A stretch of 64,000 nucleotides of DNA, from assembly GCA_041661265.1 (NCBI GenBank), contig JBAZUT010000001.1:1854-65853 (forward strand). Direction: 5' to 3'. The stretch is from Minisyncoccota bacterium (GTDB lineage Bacteria; Patescibacteriota; Minisyncoccia; JAHIHE01; JAGLIN01). A model generated the notes under the pieces. That model searched no databases. It was given only the letters and a program-made list of their open reading frames with translations, and was not told the origin of the DNA. The translations under genes and the position numbers were made by a program. Below, one piece after another: positions 33,111-60,487 of this stretch (position 1 is its first letter; each line of letters starts with the position of its first letter).

Positions 33111-33563
33111 TTGATAAAAAATGTATTGATCAAAACTTCAGGAGACACGAGCGATCTCGCCGCATTCCGGGAATTCGCCATTGAAAAAGCGAAAAGCAAT
33201 TATGTCGTGGTGATCTGCGGAGGAGGATCCCAGATCAACCAGGCGCTGAAGAATGCGGGGTTCGAGATCAAATTCAACGACCACGGACGAGTGACCGAGA
33301 CATGGGAAGAAAGAAAGATCGCGCGCGACATTCTTGAAAAGGAGCAAAAGGATCTTCAGGATTCTTTCGTCGGAAAAGGAATCTCCGTCCTGGCTCCCCT
33401 TCTTGAAGCCTCTTCCGTGCTCTGTCCCATCAATGGCGACAACATGGTGAAAGCATTCTATCTCGGATTCGACGAGATATATGTCTTCACGCTCAAAGAC
33501 AGGATCGATGCGAAGAAGGAAGTCTTCAAGAAATATGAAAAAGTGCAGATCGTGGGAATTTGA
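33111..33563 (+). CDS. compact amino-acid-kinase (AAK) superfamily-like protein, tentative; TTG start
   Basis: AGGAGG-N7-TTG. N-lobe VLIKTSGDT...VVVICGGGSQIN and C-lobe NGDNMVKAFYLGFDEIYVFTLKD resemble AAK motifs, but only 150 aa. Confidence 0.35.
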   Translation: MIKNVLIKTSGDTSDLAAFREFAIEKAKSNYVVVICGGGSQINQALKNAGFEIKFNDHGRVTETWEERKIARDILEKEQKDLQDSFVGKGISVLAPLLEASSVLCPINGDNMVKAFYLGFDEIYVFTLKDRIDAKKEVFKKYEKVQIVGI

Positions 33564-34099
33564 GGAGGAATATGTTTCTCACGGACATCTTCATGAAGAT
33601 GGTCATCTTCTTCGGATGTAAAACGGGATTATATCACCTGAGAGCAAAGTGGACCAAGGAAGGGCTGGTTTGCGAAGATTGCGGATATTTCGAAGATAAA
33701 GCTGCATATCAAGCAAGCCTGCACTCCGGTGCGGGATAACAAAAATACACGAAAATCGTGTAATTTTTTTAGGTGAAAAAAGCACCTTACACTTTTTTTC
33801 CCGAACAAATCCTTTTCGTCTGACTTTCACAGACTCATCAGTAAGCTAAGCTTATAAGGAAAAATGGCCTCAAGATAAAATAAAAGAAGATAAAGTATTT
33901 TCATAACAGTAAGAATTATTGTATTTATTAATCTTAAAAACAGCATCAATTTTAAGGTACGTACAAATATTATGTCGCCTGCCATCATCAGTTTAGAGAG
34001 GCCATTCTCTAAAGACACAAATTGATAACCCAAATGTGTTTCGGCTATGAAACTAGGATGTATATATTCTAACAAGAAAATAAAAAGATGCAACCATGA

Positions 34100-34495
34100 C
34101 TATATCCTTTGAATAATTCGATCTATAATTTTCTGGCCGTTTTTTAATTGATGCTCCCAAATTCGAAAAATTTTCCAGCCAATTTTTTTATAATATTTCG
34201 TTACTTCCCTATCTCTTTCAACATTCCGTGCTAACTTTAATTGCCAAAATCTTTTTCTGGTATTTGGCATACTCCCATGCCTTTTGCATCCATGCCAGAA
34301 ACAAGAATCTACAAAAATGACAGCCTTGTATTTTGATAAAACCAAGTCGGGCTTCCCGAAATATTTTGATGAATTTTTACAGTAACGAAATCCCACTTTC
34401 CAGAGTTTTTTTCTAAATTCAATCTCCAGCTTGCTGTCCTTGCTTCGGACTTTAGACATTATCTCGCTTCGCTTCTTTTTTGAGTAAATATCCAT
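34100..34495 (-). CDS. vsr: very-short-patch repair endonuclease Vsr
   Basis: FRKKLWKVGFRY, GKPDLVL, FVDSCFWHGC, ...IFRIWEHQ family signature. Confidence 0.85.
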   Translation of the reverse strand: MDIYSKKKRSEIMSKVRSKDSKLEIEFRKKLWKVGFRYCKNSSKYFGKPDLVLSKYKAVIFVDSCFWHGCKRHGSMPNTRKRFWQLKLARNVERDREVTKYYKKIGWKIFRIWEHQLKNGQKIIDRIIQRI

Positions 34496-34500
34496 ATACT

Positions 34501-36207
34501 TTAGATTGTTTCCGCATTATCCAATCGATTGAATAAATGTGATAAAAGACTTAATGCGTCTAGACAATCTTGTTCCGTATATAAGCCAGACTGTCTCAAA
34601 TCTTCAGCAGTTTCGTGCGCCTTTGGATTTCTAAAAGCCATCCACATCGCACGAGCCAATAGACCATGTCCTTTGGAAATGTTTTCCAATGTAAGTGGCT
34701 TAAAATCTGTACCATCGGGCCGTTTATACTTTTTTGTTACAGATAATATTGGTAGAACAGGAGGCAGAGGCGGGTTTTGTGGTTTCGGCTGATCCGGTGA
34801 AAAAGCTTCTTTAATCAATCTAAGATCAACATTACTGGATGCGGTTTTAGCTTTAATCTGATTAACATATTCAGTCACACCCTCCAGTACGGCACCATAA
34901 TAATCGCTATTTTTATAATAATTAAAGACAATTTTTTTTAAAACTGGATGCAAATTGCGCCAGTGAAAGTACGGATATGGTTTAATTATATTTTGAAGAC
35001 CCTTTAAACTGCTTACAAGCTTTTCTTCTGTCATCTCAGAATCTTTCAATAAAGCACCGATGATAGGATCAAGATCTTCTCTAATATTTTCAGGTATATG
35101 ATTTCGCCACTCACCAATACTCATGCCAGTTTTATTTTCTGCCTCTTTTGATCTTATTTCTGCTCTTCTTTTACGCCAATCTTGTTCCAGCCAATTAATA
35201 ACTTTTCTTAAATAATCTCTTAATTTTAACATTTCCGGATGACCCCAATTTAAAGATTTTCGATCTGTAGCTATAACGTCTTCATCAAGATCATCAATAA
35301 AATCTACTTCCAGCCAACCAGTCAAATACGAAAAGAAATGACTTGACATGCTTTCAGAAAAATACTCCGGTAAATTTACCAATTTTTTCCTAGAAAATAA
35401 AGTAACTCCACGCATATTAGTTTTTGGTGAAATCGGCGTTTCTGTCGCAATAAGATATCCAGTAACTTTATTTTTTTCTGAATAATCTGATTCGAGTTTA
35501 ATTTCTTTTGGAACGTCCCACTCAACTTCTTTTTTTAAATCCGCATACTTCTTCTCGTTTTCAACAAAAAAAGGGTTTTCTTCATTATACTGGATAGAAA
35601 CTTTAAAAGTATTATCTACAATAAAGATTTTTGACAATGCAACAGCAAGAGCTGACGAATCAAATTCGGTTTGACGATGAAGTCCACGAAGGATAATTGT
35701 TGTACCATTTTTAGCATCGCAAGGTTCATCAATCTTTATAAGTTGCGGATGATATTCAGCGGTTTTAGATTCTTTTATGTCTTGCCATCGAAGAATAAAA
35801 ACGTTCATTTTTAAATTCTTCTTCGTAATCACTTCAATCTCCTCAGCAATCCCAAAAAATGATAACTTCCCTATGCCCTTTTTCCCTATTACTTTTCTCC
35901 CTCCTGTAATACTTTCTACTTCTTCCTCATCTCGTCTATTACGACCGATACGAAGAAATTTACTATTGATTTCTTCGAGATTCATTCCAATACCATTATC
36001 TTTGACAGCAATTTCCCGTTTTCCGTATTTATCATATAGAAAAACAGTCACGTCTGAGGCATTAGCATCATAAGAATTTGCTACCAACTCAGCGAGAACC
36101 GGTGGTAACGTTGAGTACATTCGAACGCCAAGATGTTCAATCGTCGCCGGATCAAATGTCATTTTTAAAATATCCTTTTCTTGATCATTTTGATTCATAA
36201 TTTTCAA
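34501..36207 (-). CDS. GHKL/MORC-like ATPase (HATPase_c_3-type) with C-terminal HEPN-like Rx4H motif; uncharacterised defense-associated protein
   Basis: Bergerat-fold motifs ELVANSYDA (N-box), DNGIGM (G1), GKKGIGKLS (G2). C-terminal FRNPKAHE (Rx4H) at 34612-34635. Overlaps the dcm stop by 23 nt, 5 nt upstream of vsr. Confidence 0.75.
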   Translation of the reverse strand: MKIMNQNDQEKDILKMTFDPATIEHLGVRMYSTLPPVLAELVANSYDANASDVTVFLYDKYGKREIAVKDNGIGMNLEEINSKFLRIGRNRRDEEEVESITGGRKVIGKKGIGKLSFFGIAEEIEVITKKNLKMNVFILRWQDIKESKTAEYHPQLIKIDEPCDAKNGTTIILRGLHRQTEFDSSALAVALSKIFIVDNTFKVSIQYNEENPFFVENEKKYADLKKEVEWDVPKEIKLESDYSEKNKVTGYLIATETPISPKTNMRGVTLFSRKKLVNLPEYFSESMSSHFFSYLTGWLEVDFIDDLDEDVIATDRKSLNWGHPEMLKLRDYLRKVINWLEQDWRKRRAEIRSKEAENKTGMSIGEWRNHIPENIREDLDPIIGALLKDSEMTEEKLVSSLKGLQNIIKPYPYFHWRNLHPVLKKIVFNYYKNSDYYGAVLEGVTEYVNQIKAKTASSNVDLRLIKEAFSPDQPKPQNPPLPPVLPILSVTKKYKRPDGTDFKPLTLENISKGHGLLARAMWMAFRNPKAHETAEDLRQSGLYTEQDCLDALSLLSHLFNRLDNAETI

Positions 36208-37243
36208 TTATAATTTTACCAAGCTGTCTCGCAAATTCGGGAGGAACAGCGTTCCCTATCATTCGCGCAATATCTGACATATTCTTCGCATAAAATACAT
36301 AGTCTTTGGGAAATGTTTGCAGCGTCGCACCTTCTCGAATAGAAATAGCCCTATTTTCTTCAGGATGAGCAAACCTACCATTAGAAATGCTTAAAAATTT
36401 AGTCGTAATAGTCGGGGCAGGCTTATCCCAGCTCATACGACCATAATTATCAATAAAACCATTACCTTTGTATTTTTTCCTTTTTAAATTCTTATCATGG
36501 GCCCAATCAAGCCAAGAACCTCCATTTTTTGCAGTCTTCTTAAGACGAAGTAAATTCTTTGATGTAAGGCCGGCAACCGAATGATTAAATTCCGTATCAT
36601 CCCTAAATCCAGCCTTCACTTTTTGAAATCCATTTTTCTCCCCTAAAACATCAGCAACGGTACGTTTTTTATTTATTGAATATTCTGGAAATATTTCTTT
36701 GTCAATCACTCTGCTGGCAACCAAGGAAAATCTTTTGCGAGCCTGAGGAATGCCATAATCACTCATATTCACAATCTCAAAATGAACCTTGTATCCCCTG
36801 TCTTTTAAATTGGAAACAAAATTATTCAAGCCGCTCTGATCTTTTTTCCGTAATATTCCCGGGACATTTTCAACCAATACATAACCAGGGTTAAAGTAGT
36901 CAACGAATCTCTTAAATTCAATAAGAAGATTTTTTGATTTTTGCGATTTTGTTTTATCATGCTGAATAATAGACCAATACTGACATGGGCTGCAACCAAT
37001 AAACACAATCTCATCATCGTTTTTTTTCAATCCAAGTCTTTTCGCAAGATCAATTTCTTTTAAAGCAAATACATCAGCCGTTATGAATTGCGAGTTGGGA
37101 TTATTCTTTTCATATGTCTCTTTGCATGAAGAATCATTATCTATGCCAGCAATCACGTCAATCCCTGCCTGAATTAGACCATTCGTCATTCCACCTCCCG
37201 AGCAAAAAAAGTCAACTGCTCTTATTTTTGTTTTTTTTTGCAT
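36185..37243 (-). CDS. dcm: DNA (cytosine-5)-methyltransferase
   Basis: Motif I DFFCSGGG, IV GCSPCQ, VI ENVPG, VIII QARKR, X GNAVPP. Confidence 0.9.
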   Translation of the reverse strand: MQKKTKIRAVDFFCSGGGMTNGLIQAGIDVIAGIDNDSSCKETYEKNNPNSQFITADVFALKEIDLAKRLGLKKNDDEIVFIGCSPCQYWSIIQHDKTKSQKSKNLLIEFKRFVDYFNPGYVLVENVPGILRKKDQSGLNNFVSNLKDRGYKVHFEIVNMSDYGIPQARKRFSLVASRVIDKEIFPEYSINKKRTVADVLGEKNGFQKVKAGFRDDTEFNHSVAGLTSKNLLRLKKTAKNGGSWLDWAHDKNLKRKKYKGNGFIDNYGRMSWDKPAPTITTKFLSISNGRFAHPEENRAISIREGATLQTFPKDYVFYAKNMSDIARMIGNAVPPEFARQLGKIIIENYESK

Positions 37244-37246
37244 ATA

Positions 37247-38083
37247 TTAAAAGTTTATAAACCATTCTTTATTCACCTCTACAACTTCTTCCGTCTTGAG
37301 ATTAATTCCAATTTTGAGTTCTTTCATTTTTTCCACCAGTTCATCTCCTTCGATCAAATCAATAGGAGGCGCGCCATCTCTCGTCGCTTCTTGTTTGGCA
37401 TCCCGAGTAAATGTGCCAGTTGTAATAACCAGACCCTTGTCAGCTCGACCTACCATCGCACCTCTAAAATCTCGTATTTGTTGTGACGAGACACTTCCCG
37501 CATAACGTTTACATTGAAATATAATTCTAAAACTCAATAGGCCTCCAATTTTAATAATACCCCTCCCATCTATACCGCCATCACCCGAACGACCAGTAAC
37601 TTCTACTTGGACAAAACCTGATTCACGCAAAATTCTCTGACATAACCTCTCGAAAGCTTCCGGGCTCAGTTGCAAACATTGTTCAAGTAATTCTTCCTCC
37701 CAAAGTTTCGGCGCACCTTCCGGCTCAGTACCTTCTGCAACCTCCGCCTCAATTGAATCAGTTTCACGATCGATGGTTTTAACAAAATGATTCACAATAT
37801 TTTTGTCAACGCTATTCACCTCTCTTCCCTTGGTTGTAAGGGCCCATACTCCTCTTGATGAATTCTCCAATACACCAAAACGCTTCAAATAATTACGCGA
37901 CCAAGCAAGGCGATAACCAAGCTTGGTTCTGTTTCCCCGATGAATTTCATTAATTTCATCTTCGCTAAGTTTCAATAAATTAGCAACTTTTTCCTCAATT
38001 TCAGCAATAGAACCGGAGCCGCCAAGTTCATGCAAGGCTTTGATTACTGGATTAAATAAATTATCATAAGTTGGGATAGCCAT
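37247..38083 (-). CDS. mrr: Mrr-family restriction endonuclease (Mrr_N winged helix + Mrr_cat PD-(D/E)xK)
   Basis: N-terminal IPTYDNLFNPVIKALHELGG. Catalytic region GDGGIDGRGI...FQCKRYAGSVSSQQIRDFRGA...GLVITTGTFT. Confidence 0.8.
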   Translation of the reverse strand: MAIPTYDNLFNPVIKALHELGGSGSIAEIEEKVANLLKLSEDEINEIHRGNRTKLGYRLAWSRNYLKRFGVLENSSRGVWALTTKGREVNSVDKNIVNHFVKTIDRETDSIEAEVAEGTEPEGAPKLWEEELLEQCLQLSPEAFERLCQRILRESGFVQVEVTGRSGDGGIDGRGIIKIGGLLSFRIIFQCKRYAGSVSSQQIRDFRGAMVGRADKGLVITTGTFTRDAKQEATRDGAPPIDLIEGDELVEKMKELKIGINLKTEEVVEVNKEWFINF

Positions 38084-38283
38084 AATGAATTAGTTTAATT
38101 GTTTTCGCGAATTCTACCACTTAAAAGTTACCAATAAAGGGTTTTTATCTCACCCAAATTATACTTCATTTATATTGATATTACAAGAAAATCCAGCCTT
38201 TCGGCTGGATTTACTTAAATCCCCTTTTTCAAGGGTAAGAACCAAAATATGCGCATTCCCTGCCCTATAATTATTCAAAACTA

Positions 38284-38715
38284 TCAAGCCTTCTCCGGCT
38301 TGCTCTTTATTCTATTCCTGCATTTCTTGCTTCCGCATTTGCATTTCATTTTCAAACCGACTATAGATTCTTCGGAAAAATTGATCGTGATCTCTTCGCC
38401 TTTTTTGATATCCCTGGAAGCGATATCACGGGCATTTTTCGCGAATGTGTTTGCATCGCAGGAATGATTTAGATATTTCCCAGGAGACGTCGGAATGATA
38501 TATTTTCCTTTGTAGTAATAGACATTTTTTCTGATCGGATCCGGAAGATCCGGAATGTCTTCTTTTTTCACTTGACTCTTCAAGTCCCACTCGATGACAA
38601 CTTCCCCTTTTTTGAAATCGCGCGCCGCAAACACGCCCTTGCCAAGTATCTTTGATCTCTTCACTATCCAATCTTTGTGCCTGGAAGGATCTTTTCCTAC
38701 TGATGTTTTTTTCAT
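38284..38715 (-). CDS. SET-domain protein (putative lysine methyltransferase) with post-SET Cys cluster
   Basis: GKGVFAARDFKKGEVVIEW, NHSCDAN, post-SET CKCGSKKCR. Confidence 0.8.
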   Translation of the reverse strand: MKKTSVGKDPSRHKDWIVKRSKILGKGVFAARDFKKGEVVIEWDLKSQVKKEDIPDLPDPIRKNVYYYKGKYIIPTSPGKYLNHSCDANTFAKNARDIASRDIKKGEEITINFSEESIVGLKMKCKCGSKKCRNRIKSKPEKA

Positions 38716-56059: not shown

Positions 56060-56674
56060 TTAGTTCCACGGACTCAAAAATTCCCACAAAGACGCGATCA
56101 AAAATATCGGCAGCACAAGACAATAGATCCACAAAATATCCCGCAGCGCTTCCCTGGGAATCCCGAACCACATAAATCCTGCGTTTTTGAGCCGCGAACG
56201 GAACATGGAGAGGCCCGCCTGGATGCCCGCTCCGGCAGCAAGCGAATATGCGAGGAGTTGCATAAACACGACGGAAAAATAATAGAAAGCCTGCTTCGGA
56301 TGAATCAACCGGCTTATATGATCAGAATCAACTGAAACAATTCCCCCGACCCATCCTCTATATGCAACCACAGGATAGGGAAAAATAATCCCGAACCCTC
56401 CCAAAGTATCAGCCGCCGCCCCGATAGAATTACCGCCAAAATCAGCCAGCCCTTTTGATAGTTGACTCTTCTGATTCAAGATGACGCCGGCATGAGCTTT
56501 CGCCACCAAATTATCCCGATATGACAAAGCAAACTGGTTTCCCGAATGTACCATGACAATTCCAATCGCAACAGAAACAAAATATGTTGCTGCCACAGTG
56601 AGAATGGGAATTTTTGCCCGCCAGAGTGCGGATCTTATCTGAGTGATTATCATATTGTTTAATAACTCATGCAT
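56060..56674 (-). CDS. membrane protein, possibly SpoIIM/DUF95-like
   Basis: ~6 TM segments, weak family resemblance. Confidence 0.4.
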   Translation of the reverse strand: MHELLNNMIITQIRSALWRAKIPILTVAATYFVSVAIGIVMVHSGNQFALSYRDNLVAKAHAGVILNQKSQLSKGLADFGGNSIGAAADTLGGFGIIFPYPVVAYRGWVGGIVSVDSDHISRLIHPKQAFYYFSVVFMQLLAYSLAAGAGIQAGLSMFRSRLKNAGFMWFGIPREALRDILWIYCLVLPIFLIASLWEFLSPWN

Positions 56675-56710
56675 TAGAATGTCCAGCTCCTTAGATTGTA
56701 ACCAACCACC

Positions 56711-57088
56711 CTACCCCCCTTTCCCGAATTGGGCTGATTCCCAGCTATGCCCCAATTCAGCAAGTATTAGCCATACCCTAACTTCACCAAACAATGCATC
56801 CTTTTTTTGAAGATACTTGGCGATGTTCAAACATATTTGGTCTTGTCTTTCTACCCGATCCTTAAAAGAGTGAGCCGTTATTTCAATTTCTACATCACCG
56901 ATCATTCCCTCACCGCTAACATTAACGAGACGAATACTTACTTCTTCCGGTTTAAGCTTAATATCATTACAAGTTAATTCTTGAGCAATAAACTTTTTCA
57001 GATCATCTTTTAGTGAATTCGACATTAGCTGCCGACCAACGTCTTTTTGTTGACCTAAATCTTTATAAAAAATATTTACGGTTGGCAT
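56711..57088 (-). CDS. hypothetical protein (Pro2 after Met; tautomerase-like fold cannot be excluded)
   Basis: ORF only. Confidence 0.35.
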   Translation of the reverse strand: MPTVNIFYKDLGQQKDVGRQLMSNSLKDDLKKFIAQELTCNDIKLKPEEVSIRLVNVSGEGMIGDVEIEITAHSFKDRVERQDQICLNIAKYLQKKDALFGEVRVWLILAELGHSWESAQFGKGG

Positions 57089-57347
57089 AATAAATGATAT
57101 TTATGTTTATTTTAATTATTTTATAATTAATTCTTAAAACAAAAAACTTATCCCTTCTAAATTAACCACATTAAAACTCTTAGAGCGAATTTTATTATCT
57201 GAAAAATATATATCCAATTATACCCCCAACCAAACAGTTAACGGAATATTAGAAAAATAGAACAGAACATCAAACTCCTAATCTTTTAATTCAATCACCT
57301 CGAAATTTCCGCGGCGTCAGAAAAGGAATCCGGTACCTTTTAAATAT

Positions 57348-58454
57348 TTATATTCGTAGATCATTTATCCCCGCCAACTCTAATCCGCAAGCTGAAACTG
57401 CTCGTTTATAGCCATATAATTCATTTAAGGAACGATACCATTGATTTCTATATACAGCACGAGTAGCAACGGCGAGCATTTTCTTCTCTAAAGAATTGTC
57501 AAATAACTGTAAATATGGCAAAGCTTTTTCGATAAACTTAGAAGCGTAAATTTGCGATTCTTTAATAATTTCTCTTTCAACCATAATTTTGGCTATACTT
57601 TCAAGATCATTCTTTTGCGCTTTTTGATTACCAAAAGCTTTTTTGAACAACTCTTTTTCATTTTTACTTGCTTTTTCTAGAAATAAAATATTTATTATTG
57701 TATATCGACCATTTTTTATGTCTTCAAAATCTTTTATAATATCGCTTATATCATTGGTAACCATATAAGCTATACCGATATTTTCACCGAAATTTGATAA
57801 TGCATTAATTCTTTCATTACTGCCACCGGCGGCAATTCCACCAATTTTTAAAATATGCTCCCAATAATTATATGCATAAGTTCTTCTTTCGTAAACATCC
57901 ATAGAGGGTTCATTATTATGATTTTCAATAAAAAATCCTTCATAAATATCCTTTATAAAGCTAGATACAGTATTTAAAATATAATGTGTTTGTTGCTCAT
58001 TTAATTTTAATTTTTCTATTGATTCTCCAATTAAATCATAGGCTAAGCTAATAAGTATATGAGAGATTATAATTTTATCCTGTACATTTTGACGATTTTG
58101 ATAATATCCAGGATAATCAAAAATTTTGTCACAACAGTAATAAGAAAATTCTAACAAATCCATTGATGCTGCTATCGGTAAAAAATTTATTAAATCCTTA
58201 CCACCGCAAATCTCATATCCCAATCTTGCAATGTGAGATCTCATTTTTGGTTTACCAAGTCTTCCTATGGCTGCTTCGTATAGTTTTTTATAAATCTCGT
58301 CATTATTGCATATTCTGCCTTTCGACTTTTCAAAATAATTTAATATTATTGGATCTACGAGATTTGAAGTTTCCTCCATTATACGAAAATATTTATCAAG
58401 CAAAAGCATGATCTCTTTTCTTTCATCTTTTTTGGTTTTTTGACCTTGTTCCAT
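57348..58454 (-). CDS. polyprenyl-synthetase-superfamily-like protein with degenerate Asp-rich motifs
   Basis: GIAYMVTNDISDI resembles the second DDxxD motif. The first motif is replaced by CDKIFD. Confidence 0.4.
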   Translation of the reverse strand: MEQGQKTKKDERKEIMLLLDKYFRIMEETSNLVDPIILNYFEKSKGRICNNDEIYKKLYEAAIGRLGKPKMRSHIARLGYEICGGKDLINFLPIAASMDLLEFSYYCCDKIFDYPGYYQNRQNVQDKIIISHILISLAYDLIGESIEKLKLNEQQTHYILNTVSSFIKDIYEGFFIENHNNEPSMDVYERRTYAYNYWEHILKIGGIAAGGSNERINALSNFGENIGIAYMVTNDISDIIKDFEDIKNGRYTIINILFLEKASKNEKELFKKAFGNQKAQKNDLESIAKIMVEREIIKESQIYASKFIEKALPYLQLFDNSLEKKMLAVATRAVYRNQWYRSLNELYGYKRAVSACGLELAGINDLRI

Positions 58455-58563
58455 ACATTTATATAACTTGCGGATGTTTAATTAAATCTCTGATTGAAAC
58501 CGCCTATACTTTAACGATTTTAATTTACAACTATTCCATTGTATTATTAGGTAAATAAAACAG

Positions 58564-59028
58564 CTATTCTGTCCCCAACTGAATAGTCAAAGGAATATTT
58601 GAAAAATAAGAAAGCACATCGAACTTTGAATCTTTTAATTCGATCATCTCGAAATTTACACGATCAATAAGCTTAAAATGCTCGTCATCTTTCAAATACT
58701 TTTCCTTGAAAGAATTGTAATCCCTGAGAGTAAAATCGGCGTCTCCGCGCTCCAGACGTGCTGGATCTGGCTTGCGAACTTTGAGAAGCCAAAGAGGCCC
58801 GGCAAGAGTTTGAAGCGGTTTATAAAATTTATAAAGAGGTCCAGTCGAGTTATCCTCCACAACATCACCAAGCTCAGAGGCTTCCCTGTTCAGCGCTTCA
58901 TATTCAGCCCTACTCTGACAAAAAATCGCCGAGTAGTTTACTTTTGTTGATTCATCCAATATATGAATTTTATTTAATTCTATTGTTCTTGGAATAATGT
59001 ATTCCAAGATTCCAGAAACTGTATTCAT
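58564..59028 (-). CDS. hypothetical protein
   Basis: ORF only. Confidence 0.4.
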   Translation of the reverse strand: MNTVSGILEYIIPRTIELNKIHILDESTKVNYSAIFCQSRAEYEALNREASELGDVVEDNSTGPLYKFYKPLQTLAGPLWLLKVRKPDPARLERGDADFTLRDYNSFKEKYLKDDEHFKLIDRVNFEMIELKDSKFDVLSYFSNIPLTIQLGTE

Positions 59029-59049
59029 AATAATTTGAAAAATGTGACT

Positions 59050-59790
59050 TTATCCAATCAGCACTTTGATAGCGGAAATTATAACAACAGTGCTGAAAAA
59101 AGCTTTTACCCATCTGTTCCCTTTCTTCACTGCGATATGAGCACCTAAATAACCGCCGATCAGCATTCCGATAAACAAAGGGATTCCTATCTGATAATCT
59201 ATTATACCATTAGCCATAAATATTATAACCGAGGCAACGGAAAAAATAGTGAAGGAAACCAGTTCGGTGGCATTCGCTTCGATCATCGGCAGTCCAAAAA
59301 AGAAAACAACGATACTGATCAAAATGGCGCCAAAGCCGCCAAAAAAACTGGCAATTATTGAAATTAGAAAATACAGGATATAGCCAACTATTTTATAATT
59401 TCTTGAAGTGGTTTTGTTTTCCAAACCAAAATCCTTTTTAAGAAAAATAGTCGGCACAAGAAGAAGGAGCAAGACTCCGGTCAGAGTTTTTAATGAAGCG
59501 GGATCAGCGGATAATAAGATTTTTGATCCGATCACGCTGGAAAAAATACCAGCGACGCTTAAACCAATGGCATATTTCCAAACTATTTTCTTTTCTTTTA
59601 TAAATTTATACAACCCGCCGATACTGAGCCCGATCCCGCCGAATTTGTTCGTCGCCAAAGTTATCTGCGGCGGAATGCCATAAAGCAGTAGGAGAGATAT
59701 CGAAAATAGTCCCCCTCCGCCGGCTACCGCTCCAACAAATCCGGAAAGGACACCGGCGAAAAAAATTGAAATTAATTGGACAAATATCAT
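59050..59790 (-). CDS. TauE/SafE-family (DUF81) sulfite exporter-like membrane protein
   Basis: GFVGAVAGGGGLFSISLLLLYGIPPQIATNKF signature. Confidence 0.75.
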   Translation of the reverse strand: MIFVQLISIFFAGVLSGFVGAVAGGGGLFSISLLLLYGIPPQITLATNKFGGIGLSIGGLYKFIKEKKIVWKYAIGLSVAGIFSSVIGSKILLSADPASLKTLTGVLLLLLVPTIFLKKDFGLENKTTSRNYKIVGYILYFLISIIASFFGGFGAILISIVVFFFGLPMIEANATELVSFTIFSVASVIIFMANGIIDYQIGIPLFIGMLIGGYLGAHIAVKKGNRWVKAFFSTVVIISAIKVLIG

Positions 59791-59972
59791 TTAAATATTT
59801 TTATTGTTCGGAAAAGATATCGGGTTATTTTAGTTACATTTGGCCATCGGTACATAAAACTCCTTGAACCAATGATAGCTTAAACTATAGGAAAAATCAA
59901 CAAAAAAACCGCCTTAAAGCGGATTTTTACGGCTTGCTGACATTCCCTAAGTCTTTCTCATTCAAACCTCGC

Positions 59973-60296
59973 TTATTCAACCCAAACTGCTGTTCCATAG
60001 CAAAGCACTTCGGTCACTCCTGACATAATTTCATTCGCATCATAGCGGACTCCGACAATGGCATTCGCGCCCATTTCTTCCGCGTGCTTGACCATCAGAT
60101 CAAAAGCTTCCTGACGCGTTCTTTCGCATAAACTTGTGAACAGAGTGATATTCCCTCCGACGAGAGTATGAAGCGCGCCGCCAAGAGTTCCGAAAATCGA
60201 TCTGGATCTCACCGTGATCCCTTTCACCAAGCCGAAATTCTTAACTATTTTCTTGCCCGGCAATTCGAGCACCGTGGTGATATTGTTGTATTCCAT
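59973..60296 (-). CDS. YbjQ/UPF0145 heavy-metal-binding-domain protein
   Basis: TVRSRSIFGTLGGALHTLVGG...GANAIVGVRYD family signature. Confidence 0.75.
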   Translation of the reverse strand: MEYNNITTVLELPGKKIVKNFGLVKGITVRSRSIFGTLGGALHTLVGGNITLFTSLCERTRQEAFDLMVKHAEEMGANAIVGVRYDANEIMSGVTEVLCYGTAVWVE

Positions 60297-60487
60297 ATTT
60301 ATAAATATTATTTAATAAACAATACGATGTCCGTCCTTAAATTTCAAACTGTAAATTTAATACGTAAAATTAATCTAGTTTTTTTTAATCAAGCTCGCCT
60401 TCGCGAATCTACTGGCCTGGCTTCGCCGGAGGCTACGCCAAGGCGAGCGGACTGTGTCACGCCGTAGCTTCGCTTCGGCGAAGCGAA

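Follow-up and report, generated by a model that had tools for sequence, protein, structure and literature searches.

Gene layout and boundaries of the locus

Do the four minus-strand genes between positions 34100 and 38083 of the 64-kb stretch of DNA analysed here (the window) form one composite restriction/defence system of an undescribed type, as proposed in an initial annotation, or do they represent known parts placed side by side? All four open reading frames were recovered at the coordinates first proposed and on the same strand, and the following features were assigned.

38158-38302, minus strand: suggested upstream boundary, terminator-like hairpin and promoter-like site (consensus scan)
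37247-38083, minus strand: Mrr-family gene, 278 aa ORF
36185-37243, minus strand: C5-methyltransferase (dcm) gene, 352 aa ORF
34501-36207, minus strand: GHKL-HEPN gene, 568 aa ORF from a TTG start
34501-36198, minus strand: paraMORC-type GHKL ATPase with C-terminal Ymh-family HEPN, putative "R" component (R.NmeAIP-like), based on profiles, model and gonococcal homolog
35749-36105, minus strand: GHKL (Bergerat-fold) ATP-binding domain, Pfam match to residues 35-153 of the 568-aa ORF
34522-34959, minus strand: Ymh-family HEPN domain; its Rx4H motif RNPKAH spans 34615-34632
34100-34495, minus strand: vsr gene, 131 aa ORF
33746-33762, minus strand: terminator-like hairpin, some 340 nt past the end of vsr (consensus scan)

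The 3-nt gap between mrr and dcm and the 5-nt gap between the GHKL-HEPN gene and vsr were obtained both by direct reading of the sequence and by computation, whereas the 23-nt overlap described between dcm and the GHKL-HEPN gene requires that translation begin at the TTG at 36207. In public gene calls the gene starts at the ATG at 36198 (565 aa, protein P0001), which gives a 14-nt overlap; the ATG at 36162, where the alignments of homologs begin, is a third candidate. Upstream of the cassette, a terminator-like hairpin at 38285-38302 follows the SET-domain gene and precedes a promoter-like site at 38158-38186 ahead of mrr. The consensus scan gave more terminator-like sites than expected (11 against an expected 3.7) and no more promoter-like sites than chance would give (17 against an expected 16.8), and the assignment of the upstream boundary is therefore only suggestive. 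The transcription unit may end at the hairpin at 33746-33762; the next called gene beyond vsr is the convergent one at 33111-33563. The identities given earlier to the neighbouring genes (SET, AadA_C/NTP_transf_2 and Cation_efflux) were confirmed.

Domains and conserved motifs of the four proteins

Profile searches matched every domain that had been proposed for the four proteins, and the quoted motifs ELVANSYDA, Rx4H and GCSPCQ were all found in the translations. The product of 37247-38083 is predicted to be an Mrr-family Type IV (modification-dependent) restriction endonuclease, based on matches to Mrr_N (E = 2.8e-20), Mrr_cat (E = 1.1e-32) and PADLOC mREase_IV (E = 8.7e-32) and on a GIDG...FQCKRY catalytic region. 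The methyltransferase matched DNA_methylase (E = 3.5e-58) and TIGR00675 (141 bits, cut-off 100.65) and carries GCSPCQ at 36980-36997; the motifs FxGxGG, GCSPCQ, ENV, QxRxR and GNAVP are conserved across 67 partner methyltransferases of homologous loci. The product of vsr matched the Vsr profile (E = 6.3e-28), TIGR00632 (123.9 bits, cut-off 97.85) and PADLOC Vsr (E = 5.4e-22).

The GHKL-HEPN protein matched HATPase_c_3 (E = 9.3e-23), the HEPN family Hypoth_Ymh (E = 9.2e-13) and TIGR02391 (53.4 bits, threshold 39.45). Its GHKL domain contains the N-box ELVANSYDA (36064-36090), DxGxG and GKKGxGK, and all 67 homologs share residues E37, D44, D67, G69, G71, G105, K107, G108, G110 and K111 without exception (66 of the 67 share N41). 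Given that the HEPN Arg and His are, like the ATPase motifs, essentially invariant across the 67 systems, down to 38% identity, both predicted enzymatic centres are maintained. [quoted passage not shown] An AF2 model was obtained (pLDDT 80), and in Foldseek about 400 columns were aligned to the ATPase modules of Hsp90, MORC2/3 and SMCHD1; the N-terminal ~400 residues match a two-domain ATPase module of this kind. Signatures of PD-(D/E)xK, HNH, GIY-YIG and PLD nucleases were looked for in the protein by profile search and none was detected.

Conservation of the gene neighbourhood

Full-length relatives of this protein (hereafter GHKL-Ymh) were found in at least 551 species genomes, and the neighbourhoods of 80 loci were sampled, 76 of which had enough upstream flank and 73 both flanks. 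A co-directional C5-methyltransferase gene was located directly upstream of the GHKL-Ymh gene in 69/76 loci, and Vsr was present in 40/73, in 15 of them immediately after the GHKL-Ymh gene and in 16 ahead of the methyltransferase gene; the remaining 33 had the pair of methyltransferase and GHKL-Ymh genes but lacked Vsr to a distance of 6 kb. The linkage of GHKL-HEPN homologs to dcm and vsr is thereby borne out, with the C5-methyltransferase as the conserved partner and Vsr as an optional yet frequent accessory. No gene other than these two recurred in the sampled loci, which argues that the module has no separate nuclease. The GHKL-Ymh protein is the only, putative, candidate for a "restriction" effector of the module.

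Mrr, in contrast, was near the GHKL-Ymh gene in only 2/73 loci and is thus a neighbour rather than a conserved part of the module, although the 3-nt gap to dcm indicates that mrr is probably co-transcribed with it here. This counts against the original reading of a novel system whose four components, Mrr, Dcm, GHKL-HEPN and Vsr, act jointly. The tight spacing and the flanking terminator-like hairpins do suggest one transcription unit, and one other genome (locus L016) has the same four-gene order. However, close relatives lack Mrr, and the identity between the window and L016 drops from 83% (Mrr) and 71% (methyltransferase) to 54% (GHKL-Ymh) and 43% (Vsr), which points to mosaic assembly and not to a co-evolving unit. 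Type II and Type IV genes also commonly cluster in defence islands, and we regard a functional four-component system as highly improbable.

Relation to known systems

The arrangement, which the initial annotation could not assign to a described type, has in large part been described before. Proteins with a GHKL N-terminus and a Hypoth_Ymh C-terminus, the architecture of the window protein, were named in 2008 as the putative Type II REase subfamily R.NmeAIP (PMC2441816). In the same year the association of paraMORCs with cytosine methylases and Vsr was reported (Iyer, Abhiman & Aravind 2008; PMC2292703), followed by the fusion of paraMORC to Ymh HEPN in R-M neighbourhoods (Anantharaman et al. 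2013; PMC3710099). The window protein shares the GHKL and transducer domains, the intact ATP motifs, the link to cytosine methylase and Vsr and the C-terminal Ymh HEPN of the class defined in these two papers, which were computational; we find no substantive difference and consider it an additional member.

The closest named systems are NmeAI, a Vsr-containing C5mCGG system, and NgoAXIV, a CCGG system with V.NgoAXIV, both from Neisseria (REBASE Type IIP, CCGG, m5C, V.NmeAI/V.NgoAXIV), which share the order C5-methyltransferase, GHKL plus Hypoth_Ymh, Vsr. On a gonococcal chromosome, at a locus identified as NgoAXIV (CCGG) by elimination, all three genes are homologous to those of the window over their full length, and vsr likewise follows a 5-nt gap. 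The GHKL-HEPN proteins are 37.5% identical over residues 11-563 and the Vsr proteins 44%; the methyltransferases are 63% identical over residues 3-182 and 56% over 182-350, the latter span including the TRD. It is well supported that the trio is a widespread and already catalogued NmeAI/NgoAXIV-type R-M-like module. By homology to the gonococcal enzyme the methyltransferase is likely CCGG-specific, an assignment based on only 56% identity in the TRD half to a locus itself named by elimination; CCGG was not avoided in the 64-kb host window (O/E 1.01). Protein identity between the window copy and the Neisseria systems is no higher than 37-63%, and the window belongs to an uncultured MAG that carries the label Paceibacterota. 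The window copy further differs in having an Mrr gene joined to the operon head and in its uninterrupted reading frames, as in-frame stops are present in the gonococcal copy examined.

In the BbrUII/HgiDII family (NF050001; GTCGAC systems with m5C methyltransferases) the gene also immediately follows a C5-methyltransferase gene, often with an overlap, in the slot occupied here by the GHKL-Ymh gene. The window protein scored 229 bits against NF050001 (cut-off 550), aligning only to profile positions 2-400 of 659, the homologous paraMORC ATPase module; the C-terminal ~260 residues of that family are an uncharacterised BbrUII-type domain in place of HEPN (Ymh). This pattern suggests effector swapping on a common ATPase scaffold. 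In VcSduA (paraMORC3/GHKL-Shedu), an experimentally shown anti-phage protein, the GHKL ATPase at the N-terminus likewise controls a nuclease effector at the C-terminus, but the effector is a PD-(D/E)xK DUF4263 domain, there is no methyltransferase partner, and the protein belongs to a different paraMORC family.

Proposed function and alternative explanations

That the region consists of a three-gene R-M-like module and an independent Mrr Type IV enzyme heading the same transcription unit is well supported. We consider the overall reading, an NmeAI/NgoAXIV-type trio whose GHKL-HEPN effector most likely cuts RNA beside a separate Mrr, to be probable. The literature searched contained no experimental study of a GHKL-Ymh protein, and every step of the mechanism is therefore inferred. 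The methyltransferase would mark the host's own sites, and the GHKL and transducer module would form an ATP-driven dimeric clamp, like those of MutL, MORC and Hsp90, responding to DNA without the methyltransferase mark, alone or with the methyltransferase as recognition partner; no GHKL-Ymh regions co-varying with the methyltransferase TRD were found. Closing of the clamp would activate the C-terminal HEPN dimer. The effector step would most likely be cleavage of RNA and not of DNA, because all characterised HEPN nucleases known to us use a metal-independent chemistry that depends on the 2'-OH of RNA; the outcome would be growth arrest or abortive infection. Loss of the methyltransferase would then be toxic, which would explain its near-obligate linkage to GHKL-Ymh. 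Vsr would repair the T:G mismatches arising by deamination of 5-methylcytosines made by the module's own methyltransferase, and Mrr would target foreign DNA bearing other methylation patterns.

We thus favour RNA over DNA as the probable substrate of the HEPN domain, although REBASE-style annotation treats the GHKL-Ymh protein as a DNA endonuclease. In a conventional Type II R-M system it would cut DNA at unmethylated sites, probably CCGG, by an unconventional HEPN or an unrecognised middle-domain site. This is consistent with its REBASE-derived class (putative REase R.NmeAIP), with its matches to the REBASE-derived REase_II models of PADLOC (E = 4e-33 and 5e-31) and with the lack of any other conserved nuclease gene nearby. 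Moreover, the BbrUII/HgiDII relatives, homologous over the N-terminal 400 residues, are DNA restriction enzymes in the same slot, and BbrUII genuinely functions as a barrier by restriction of DNA, so that a nuclease-domain swap keeping the DNA substrate would be a fair expectation. However, the PADLOC and NCBIfam restriction-enzyme matches are confined to the shared ATPase module and do not cover a nuclease domain, the C-terminal fold is that of HEPN domains, which where catalytic and characterised are to our knowledge 2'-OH-dependent RNases, and none of the four DNA nuclease signatures was detected. At one locus (L050) an HpaII-family REase is located between the methyltransferase and GHKL-Ymh genes, so that there at least GHKL-Ymh is not the sole restriction enzyme. 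We judge DNA cutting of this kind to be rather unlikely.

The joining of an ATPase to HEPN, and the complete HpaII-type R-M genes beside some GHKL-Ymh genes, would fit a guard, in which the R-M proteins hold the HEPN RNase inactive until a phage neutralises them. This was explicitly proposed for Ymh-paraMORC fusions by analogy to PrrC/RloC (Anantharaman et al. 2013; PMC3710099), anticodon nucleases that likewise fuse an ATPase to a C-terminal HEPN RNase inside an R-M locus, albeit with an ABC ATPase and a Type I R-M partner in place of a GHKL ATPase and a lone C5-methyltransferase. Since most GHKL-Ymh loci contain only the methyltransferase, with or without Vsr, and no separate restriction enzyme to guard, GHKL-Ymh would be the sole effector and not a back-up, and a guard role appears improbable. 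Even less probable is a repair accessory, in which a MutL-like ATPase stimulates the adjacent Vsr and thereby frees the dcm-vsr cassette from host mismatch-repair proteins. A functional interaction of MutL and Vsr is established in E. coli (cited in PMC2292703), the GHKL gene lies between dcm and vsr in both the window and Neisseria, and weak NCBIfam MutL matches were seen in the GHKL domain. The many pairs without Vsr and the kinship to restriction enzymes speak against such a role, which would also leave the invariant HEPN Rx4H unexplained.

Base composition and origin

The AT-rich character earlier ascribed to the cassette was confirmed. Its GC content is 36.4% versus 43.3% in the rest of the window, within the lowest 4% of same-size windows, and GC3 is 0.25-0.37 versus 0.52-0.56 in nearby metabolic genes; the region at about 56.4-60.4 kb is lower still in GC. 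The phyletic distribution of GHKL-Ymh relatives is very patchy over bacteria and archaea, and some adjoin recombinases or other defence genes. Together, these observations are consistent with horizontal acquisition of the cassette, and the original view of the region as a restriction/defence module of foreign-looking composition is supported.

Gene order and domain composition

The initial annotation described four minus-strand open reading frames between 34100 and 38083, and both their positions and their domain assignments were borne out, the latter by Pfam, NCBIfam and PADLOC HMMs:

37247-38083, minus strand: Mrr nuclease; Mrr_N winged-helix and Mrr_cat PD-(D/E)xK-type domains both found by profile search (PADLOC mREase_IV, E = 8.7e-32)
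36185-37243, minus strand: C5-cytosine methyltransferase (MTase, dcm); DNA_methylase domain by profile search, TIGR00675 above its cut-off
34501-36198 or 34501-36207, minus strand: GHKL-Ymh protein; HATPase_c_3 at the N-terminus (E = 9.3e-23) and Hypoth_Ymh (PF09509) at the C-terminus (E = 9.2e-13, 48.6 bits against a cut-off of 25; TIGR02391, 53.4 bits against 39.45)
34100-34495, minus strand: Vsr endonuclease; TIGR00632, 123.9 bits against a cut-off of 97.85 (NCBIfam)

The NCBI product names for the four are restriction endonuclease, DNA cytosine methyltransferase, ATP-binding protein and very short patch repair endonuclease. The junctions were read directly and agreed with the reported gaps, 3 nt from the stop of mrr to the start of dcm and 5 nt from the stop of the GHKL gene to the start of vsr. 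The 23-nt overlap of dcm with the GHKL gene holds if translation starts at the TTG at 36207 (568 aa) and shrinks to 14 nt with the ATG at 36198, which public gene calls take as the start (565 aa, P0001). Given that homolog alignments begin close to a further ATG at 36162, the true start of the GHKL-Ymh protein is uncertain. Translation also returned the quoted motifs ELVANSYDA, RNPKAH and GCSPCQ, and the frames of the MTase, GHKL-Ymh and Vsr genes, 3.1 kb together, were intact throughout. Terminator-like hairpins were found on both sides of the four-gene set. Promoter-like matches in the scan did not exceed the shuffled expectation and the host lineage is uncertain, so that the operon structure is read from gene spacing only.

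Residues 15-388 of the GHKL-Ymh protein matched NF050001, the BbrUII/HgiDII family of restriction enzymes, but only over profile positions 2-400 of 659 and with 229.5 bits, which is below the curated cut-off of 550 and does not make it a full-length member. The REBASE-derived REase_II models of PADLOC matched the same N-terminal region (E = 4e-33 and 5e-31). With both matches confined to the N-terminus, the protein has its ATPase module in common with known restriction enzymes but differs from them at the C-terminus. In an AlphaFold2 model (pLDDT 80), about 400 columns were aligned by Foldseek with the two-domain ATPase modules of Hsp90, MORC2/3 and SMCHD1, and the protein had the features of a paraMORC: a GHKL domain with an S5-like transducer module, intact ATP-binding motifs and adjoining restriction-modification genes. 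The C-terminal region had the all-helical HEPN fold and the conserved Rx4-6H motif of the Ymh family. Its HEPN relatives (MtlR, RnlA, Csm6/Csx1 and LsoA) were revealed by structure comparison only; a sequence profile of the C-terminus gave no match in the PDB even at E = 10.

Conservation of the gene neighbourhood

In a scan restricted to one genome per species, at least 551 genomes carried a full-length relative of GHKL-Ymh. The carriers span CPR bacteria, Bacteroidota, Bdellovibrionales, Pseudomonadota, Firmicutes and Actinomycetota, with DPANN archaea, Methanoperedens and Methanoregula as archaeal carriers among the matches listed, and the phyletic distribution was very patchy. Eighty loci were fetched for comparison of the neighbourhood, of which 76 had enough upstream flank and 73 had both flanks. 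The linkage to a C5-MTase was near-obligate: as in the window, a co-directional MTase lay directly 5' of the GHKL-Ymh gene in 69 of the 76 loci. Vsr was present in 40/73 loci, directly 3' of the GHKL gene in 15 and 5' of the MTase in 16, and Mrr in 2/73.

Clustering of the neighbouring ORFs in the 80 loci gave no other widely recurring gene and no separate conserved nuclease; after MTase and Vsr the top clusters were their antisense shadows, and the remaining ones occurred in at most eight loci. A conserved separate nuclease partner was therefore rejected. Based on this survey, the minimal system is MTase plus GHKL-Ymh, with Vsr optional and Mrr incidental. The close relatives of the window module confirmed the same minimal unit, and this is the unit that should guide annotation pipelines.

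One locus from an uncultured Flavobacteriaceae (L050:3642-7605) had a different MTase of 422 aa and, between it and GHKL-Ymh, a complete gene for an HpaII-family restriction enzyme (PF09561, E = 1e-109; CCGG), showing that a conventional CCGG endonuclease can coexist with GHKL-Ymh. A 207-aa ORF held the same slot in L046 and L066. A variant architecture was seen in Chryseobacterium sp. OSA05B (L058:1341-5928), where there was no adjacent MTase and GHKL-Ymh was preceded by a 996-aa protein, with a GHKL-like N-box of its own (ELIKNAHDAYA), and a 534-aa protein; a C5-MTase was located 4.7 kb upstream and Vsr 1.3 kb downstream. On plasmid p1 of Burkholderia sp. RPE67 (L085:2844-7778) both MTase and GHKL-Ymh carried the label 'putative membrane protein', and the next gene encoded a 560-aa protein with a SIR2_2 domain and a weak match to TIR_2; the stretch resembles a defence island that has been misleadingly annotated. 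In Parcubacteria GW2011_GWC1_42_11 a large serine recombinase (Resolvase and Zn_ribbon_recom domains; L091:7833-9458) was encoded about 2 kb 3' of an MTase and GHKL-Ymh pair that lacked both Vsr and Mrr, which is consistent with carriage of that module on a mobile element.

Probable mosaic origin of the window cassette

Mrr had been proposed as a member of a four-gene composite system. Besides its rarity in the survey, it was absent from the close relatives of the module, and the complete order of the four genes was seen in a single other locus of those fetched (L016:2-3829). Identity between the two cassettes fell steadily along their length, from 83% for Mrr to 71% for the MTase, 54% for GHKL-Ymh and 43% for Vsr. 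Such a gradient speaks for mosaic assembly and suggests that the cassettes were recombined within rather than inherited as a unit. Given this pattern and the rarity of Mrr near homologous loci, Mrr is an independent Type IV enzyme that is found at the head of the transcription unit here by chance.

Relation to described systems and the Neisseria counterpart

The region is a defence module whose domains were correctly identified in the initial annotation. The suggestion there of an undescribed type was wrong, as was the inclusion of Mrr, and MTase/GHKL-Ymh/Vsr is the described NmeAI/NgoAXIV type (PMC2441816, PMC2292703, PMC3710099). Orlowski and Bujnicki (2008) placed R.NmeAIP in a putative Type II restriction enzyme subfamily with a GHKL N-terminus and a C-terminus matching Hypoth_Ymh (PMC2441816). 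In the same year Iyer, Abhiman and Aravind defined the paraMORC ATPases and showed them in restriction-modification neighbourhoods that also encode cytosine methylases and Vsr endonucleases (PMC2292703), and Ymh was recognised as a HEPN family by Anantharaman et al. in 2013 (PMC3710099). The module has thus been catalogued since 2008-2013 and is present in hundreds of species, and the window locus alone adds little. The GHKL protein of a study on V. cholerae WASA was considered as a relative and rejected, being a paraMORC3-Shedu fusion outside the GHKL-Ymh family.

When PLSDB was searched by tblastn, two 2.17-Mb N. gonorrhoeae records matched residues 11-563 of GHKL-Ymh with 37.5% identity (E = 9e-113). 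These records are chromosomes filed as plasmids; NZ_CP119142.1 is almost without annotation, and the second strain, NZ_CP119140.1, gave an identical score. The locus taken from NZ_CP119142.1 (L084; 1548369-1557970, reverse complement, module at L084:2921-6057) matched the window in the order and orientation MTase, GHKL-Ymh, Vsr and in the 5-nt gap before vsr. All three module proteins were homologous to this locus, the identities by tblastn being 63% over MTase residues 3-182, 56% over residues 182-350, which include the target-recognition region (TRD), and 44% for Vsr. In this strain the GHKL-Ymh frame contains two in-frame stops, whereas the window frame is intact, and the partner MTase of the strain has one in-frame stop and a frameshift beside an intact Vsr.

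There are only two Vsr genes in the gonococcus, and in NgoAXIII a Vsr is followed by an MTase remnant (PMC6789123), so L084 was identified as NgoAXIV by elimination. NgoAXIV is the gonococcal counterpart of NmeAI and is described as a Type IIP, CCGG, m5C system with V.NgoAXIV (PMC6789123); NmeAI likewise has a Vsr, and its methyltransferase product is C5mCGG. With 56% identity in its TRD-containing half, the window MTase most likely has CCGG (C5mCGG) as its specificity. In a palindrome scan for the recognition site, avoidance of CCGG in the window gave no signal (O/E 1.01). In the same scan GATC was strongly over-represented (515 observed against 346 expected; O/E 1.49, z = 9.1), and GGCC (O/E 0.69), CGCG (0.74) and CTAG (0.52) were depleted.

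Conserved residues and pairing with the methyltransferase

Both active-site signatures were conserved in a set of 67 MTase/GHKL-Ymh pairs with identities down to 38%. The Bergerat-fold residues E37, D44, D67, G69, G71, G105, K107, G108, G110 and K111 were invariant and N41 was present in 66/67, while in the HEPN domain H528 was invariant and R523 was present in 66/67. Judged from these alignments, the ATPase and HEPN centres are both under strong purifying selection. The TRDs of the partner MTases formed only two similarity groups, with 52 and 14 members. When 30-residue segments of GHKL-Ymh were compared with TRD divergence over the 67 pairs, the correlations stayed weak throughout (rho 0.04-0.41) and no segment stood out. 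The family has the look of a pair that is inherited together and has very few specificities.

Relatives that differ at the C-terminus

An Acinetobacter plasmid, haloarchaeal plasmids and Yersinia phage P37 gave matches limited to the N-terminal part of the query (about 60-68%), and each one examined had a C5-MTase directly upstream. These proteins are members or near relatives of the BbrUII/HgiDII family: the one from Halobaculum (L087) is a true NF050001 member (801 bits, positions 1-659) and the others scored 315-329 bits over the full profile. Given these relatives, one ATPase scaffold appears with at least two alternative C-terminal domains. A sensor with a swappable effector is a common layout among defence proteins.

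Possible mode of action

The proposed scheme is that the MTase would protect the host, that the GHKL and transducer domains would form an ATP-driven dimeric clamp answering to unmodified DNA, possibly with the MTase as recognition partner, and that the pair of C-terminal HEPN domains would be the effector. Vsr would, in the simplest view, repair the T:G mismatches that arise from the module's own methylation. The long-noted question for the whole family is which role HEPN has at the 'R' position of a system resembling Type II, and no experimental study of any GHKL-Ymh family protein was found in the literature searched. Those catalytic HEPN domains that have been characterised are, to our knowledge, RNases that need no metal and rely on the 2'-OH of the ribose. 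By this family relationship the HEPN domain of GHKL-Ymh is a putative RNase, and an effector step of RNA cleavage, leading to growth arrest or abortive infection, is favoured for that reason, although we would put it a little short of an even chance. The fuller proposal, that the NmeAI-type 'restriction enzyme' cuts no DNA and that a MORC-like clamp reads missing C5-methylation, alone or via the MTase, and switches on a HEPN RNase, is tentative and somewhat less than evenly balanced.

The classical reading is that GHKL-Ymh is a Type II restriction enzyme that cuts DNA. BbrUII works as a restriction barrier in B. breve and HgiDII is a GTCGAC system, and both share the ATPase module; on the other side, a MORC-like ATPase joined to a HEPN domain with an Rx4H motif is ill-suited to a DNA endonuclease, even though this very common family carries the name of a Type II restriction enzyme. 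We regard DNA cleavage as rather unlikely. The remaining probability falls to three readings, namely a PrrC-like guard, a helper of Vsr in the manner of MutL, and a HEPN domain that is not catalytic. PrrC and RloC also combine an ATPase with HEPN, but theirs is of the ABC type and the partner is a Type I/III system, whereas the window protein has a GHKL ATPase and a lone C5-MTase, which makes the likeness an analogy only. A helper of Vsr would be paired with a gene that is optional in the survey.

If methylation-controlled RNA cleavage were true, self and non-self would be told apart by an epigenetic mark of the restriction-modification kind and the executioner would be an abortive-infection RNase. 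With the family present in at least 551 species genomes, bacterial and archaeal, this reading would redefine a large class of genes annotated as Type II restriction enzymes, and the family would provide a prokaryotic model for MORC ATPases sensing the methylation state of DNA. The window copy, compact and with intact frames unlike the gonococcal one, would be a reasonable construct for the question of RNA versus DNA restriction.

Base composition and surroundings of the cassette

The reported AT-richness of the cassette was confirmed. Its GC content was 36.4% against 43.3% in the rest of the window, within the lowest 4% of same-size windows, and its GC3 was 0.25-0.37, compared with 0.52-0.56 for metabolic genes nearby. 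GC content has its minimum elsewhere in the window, at 56400-60400 (35.3% over 4 kb, 29% at 57-58 kb), where a polyprenyl synthetase gene (57348-58454) has a GC3 of only 0.21, and this may be a second compositionally foreign region. The segment 33564-34099, a stretch of about 540 nt on the 3' side of vsr, has no called gene, a GC content of 35.8% and two terminator-like hairpins (33746-33762 and 33771-33787), and may be the edge of an inserted segment.

The proteins of the window are MFA6096032-MFA6096065, from a MAG labelled Candidatus Paceibacterota. They include hydroxyethylthiazole kinase, a ferric-reductase/FAD/NAD protein, tandem cytochrome b5 domains, a CDGSH iron-sulfur protein and a 718-aa protein with PTPEPTPE linkers, and the metabolism encoded is a lot for a CPR genome.
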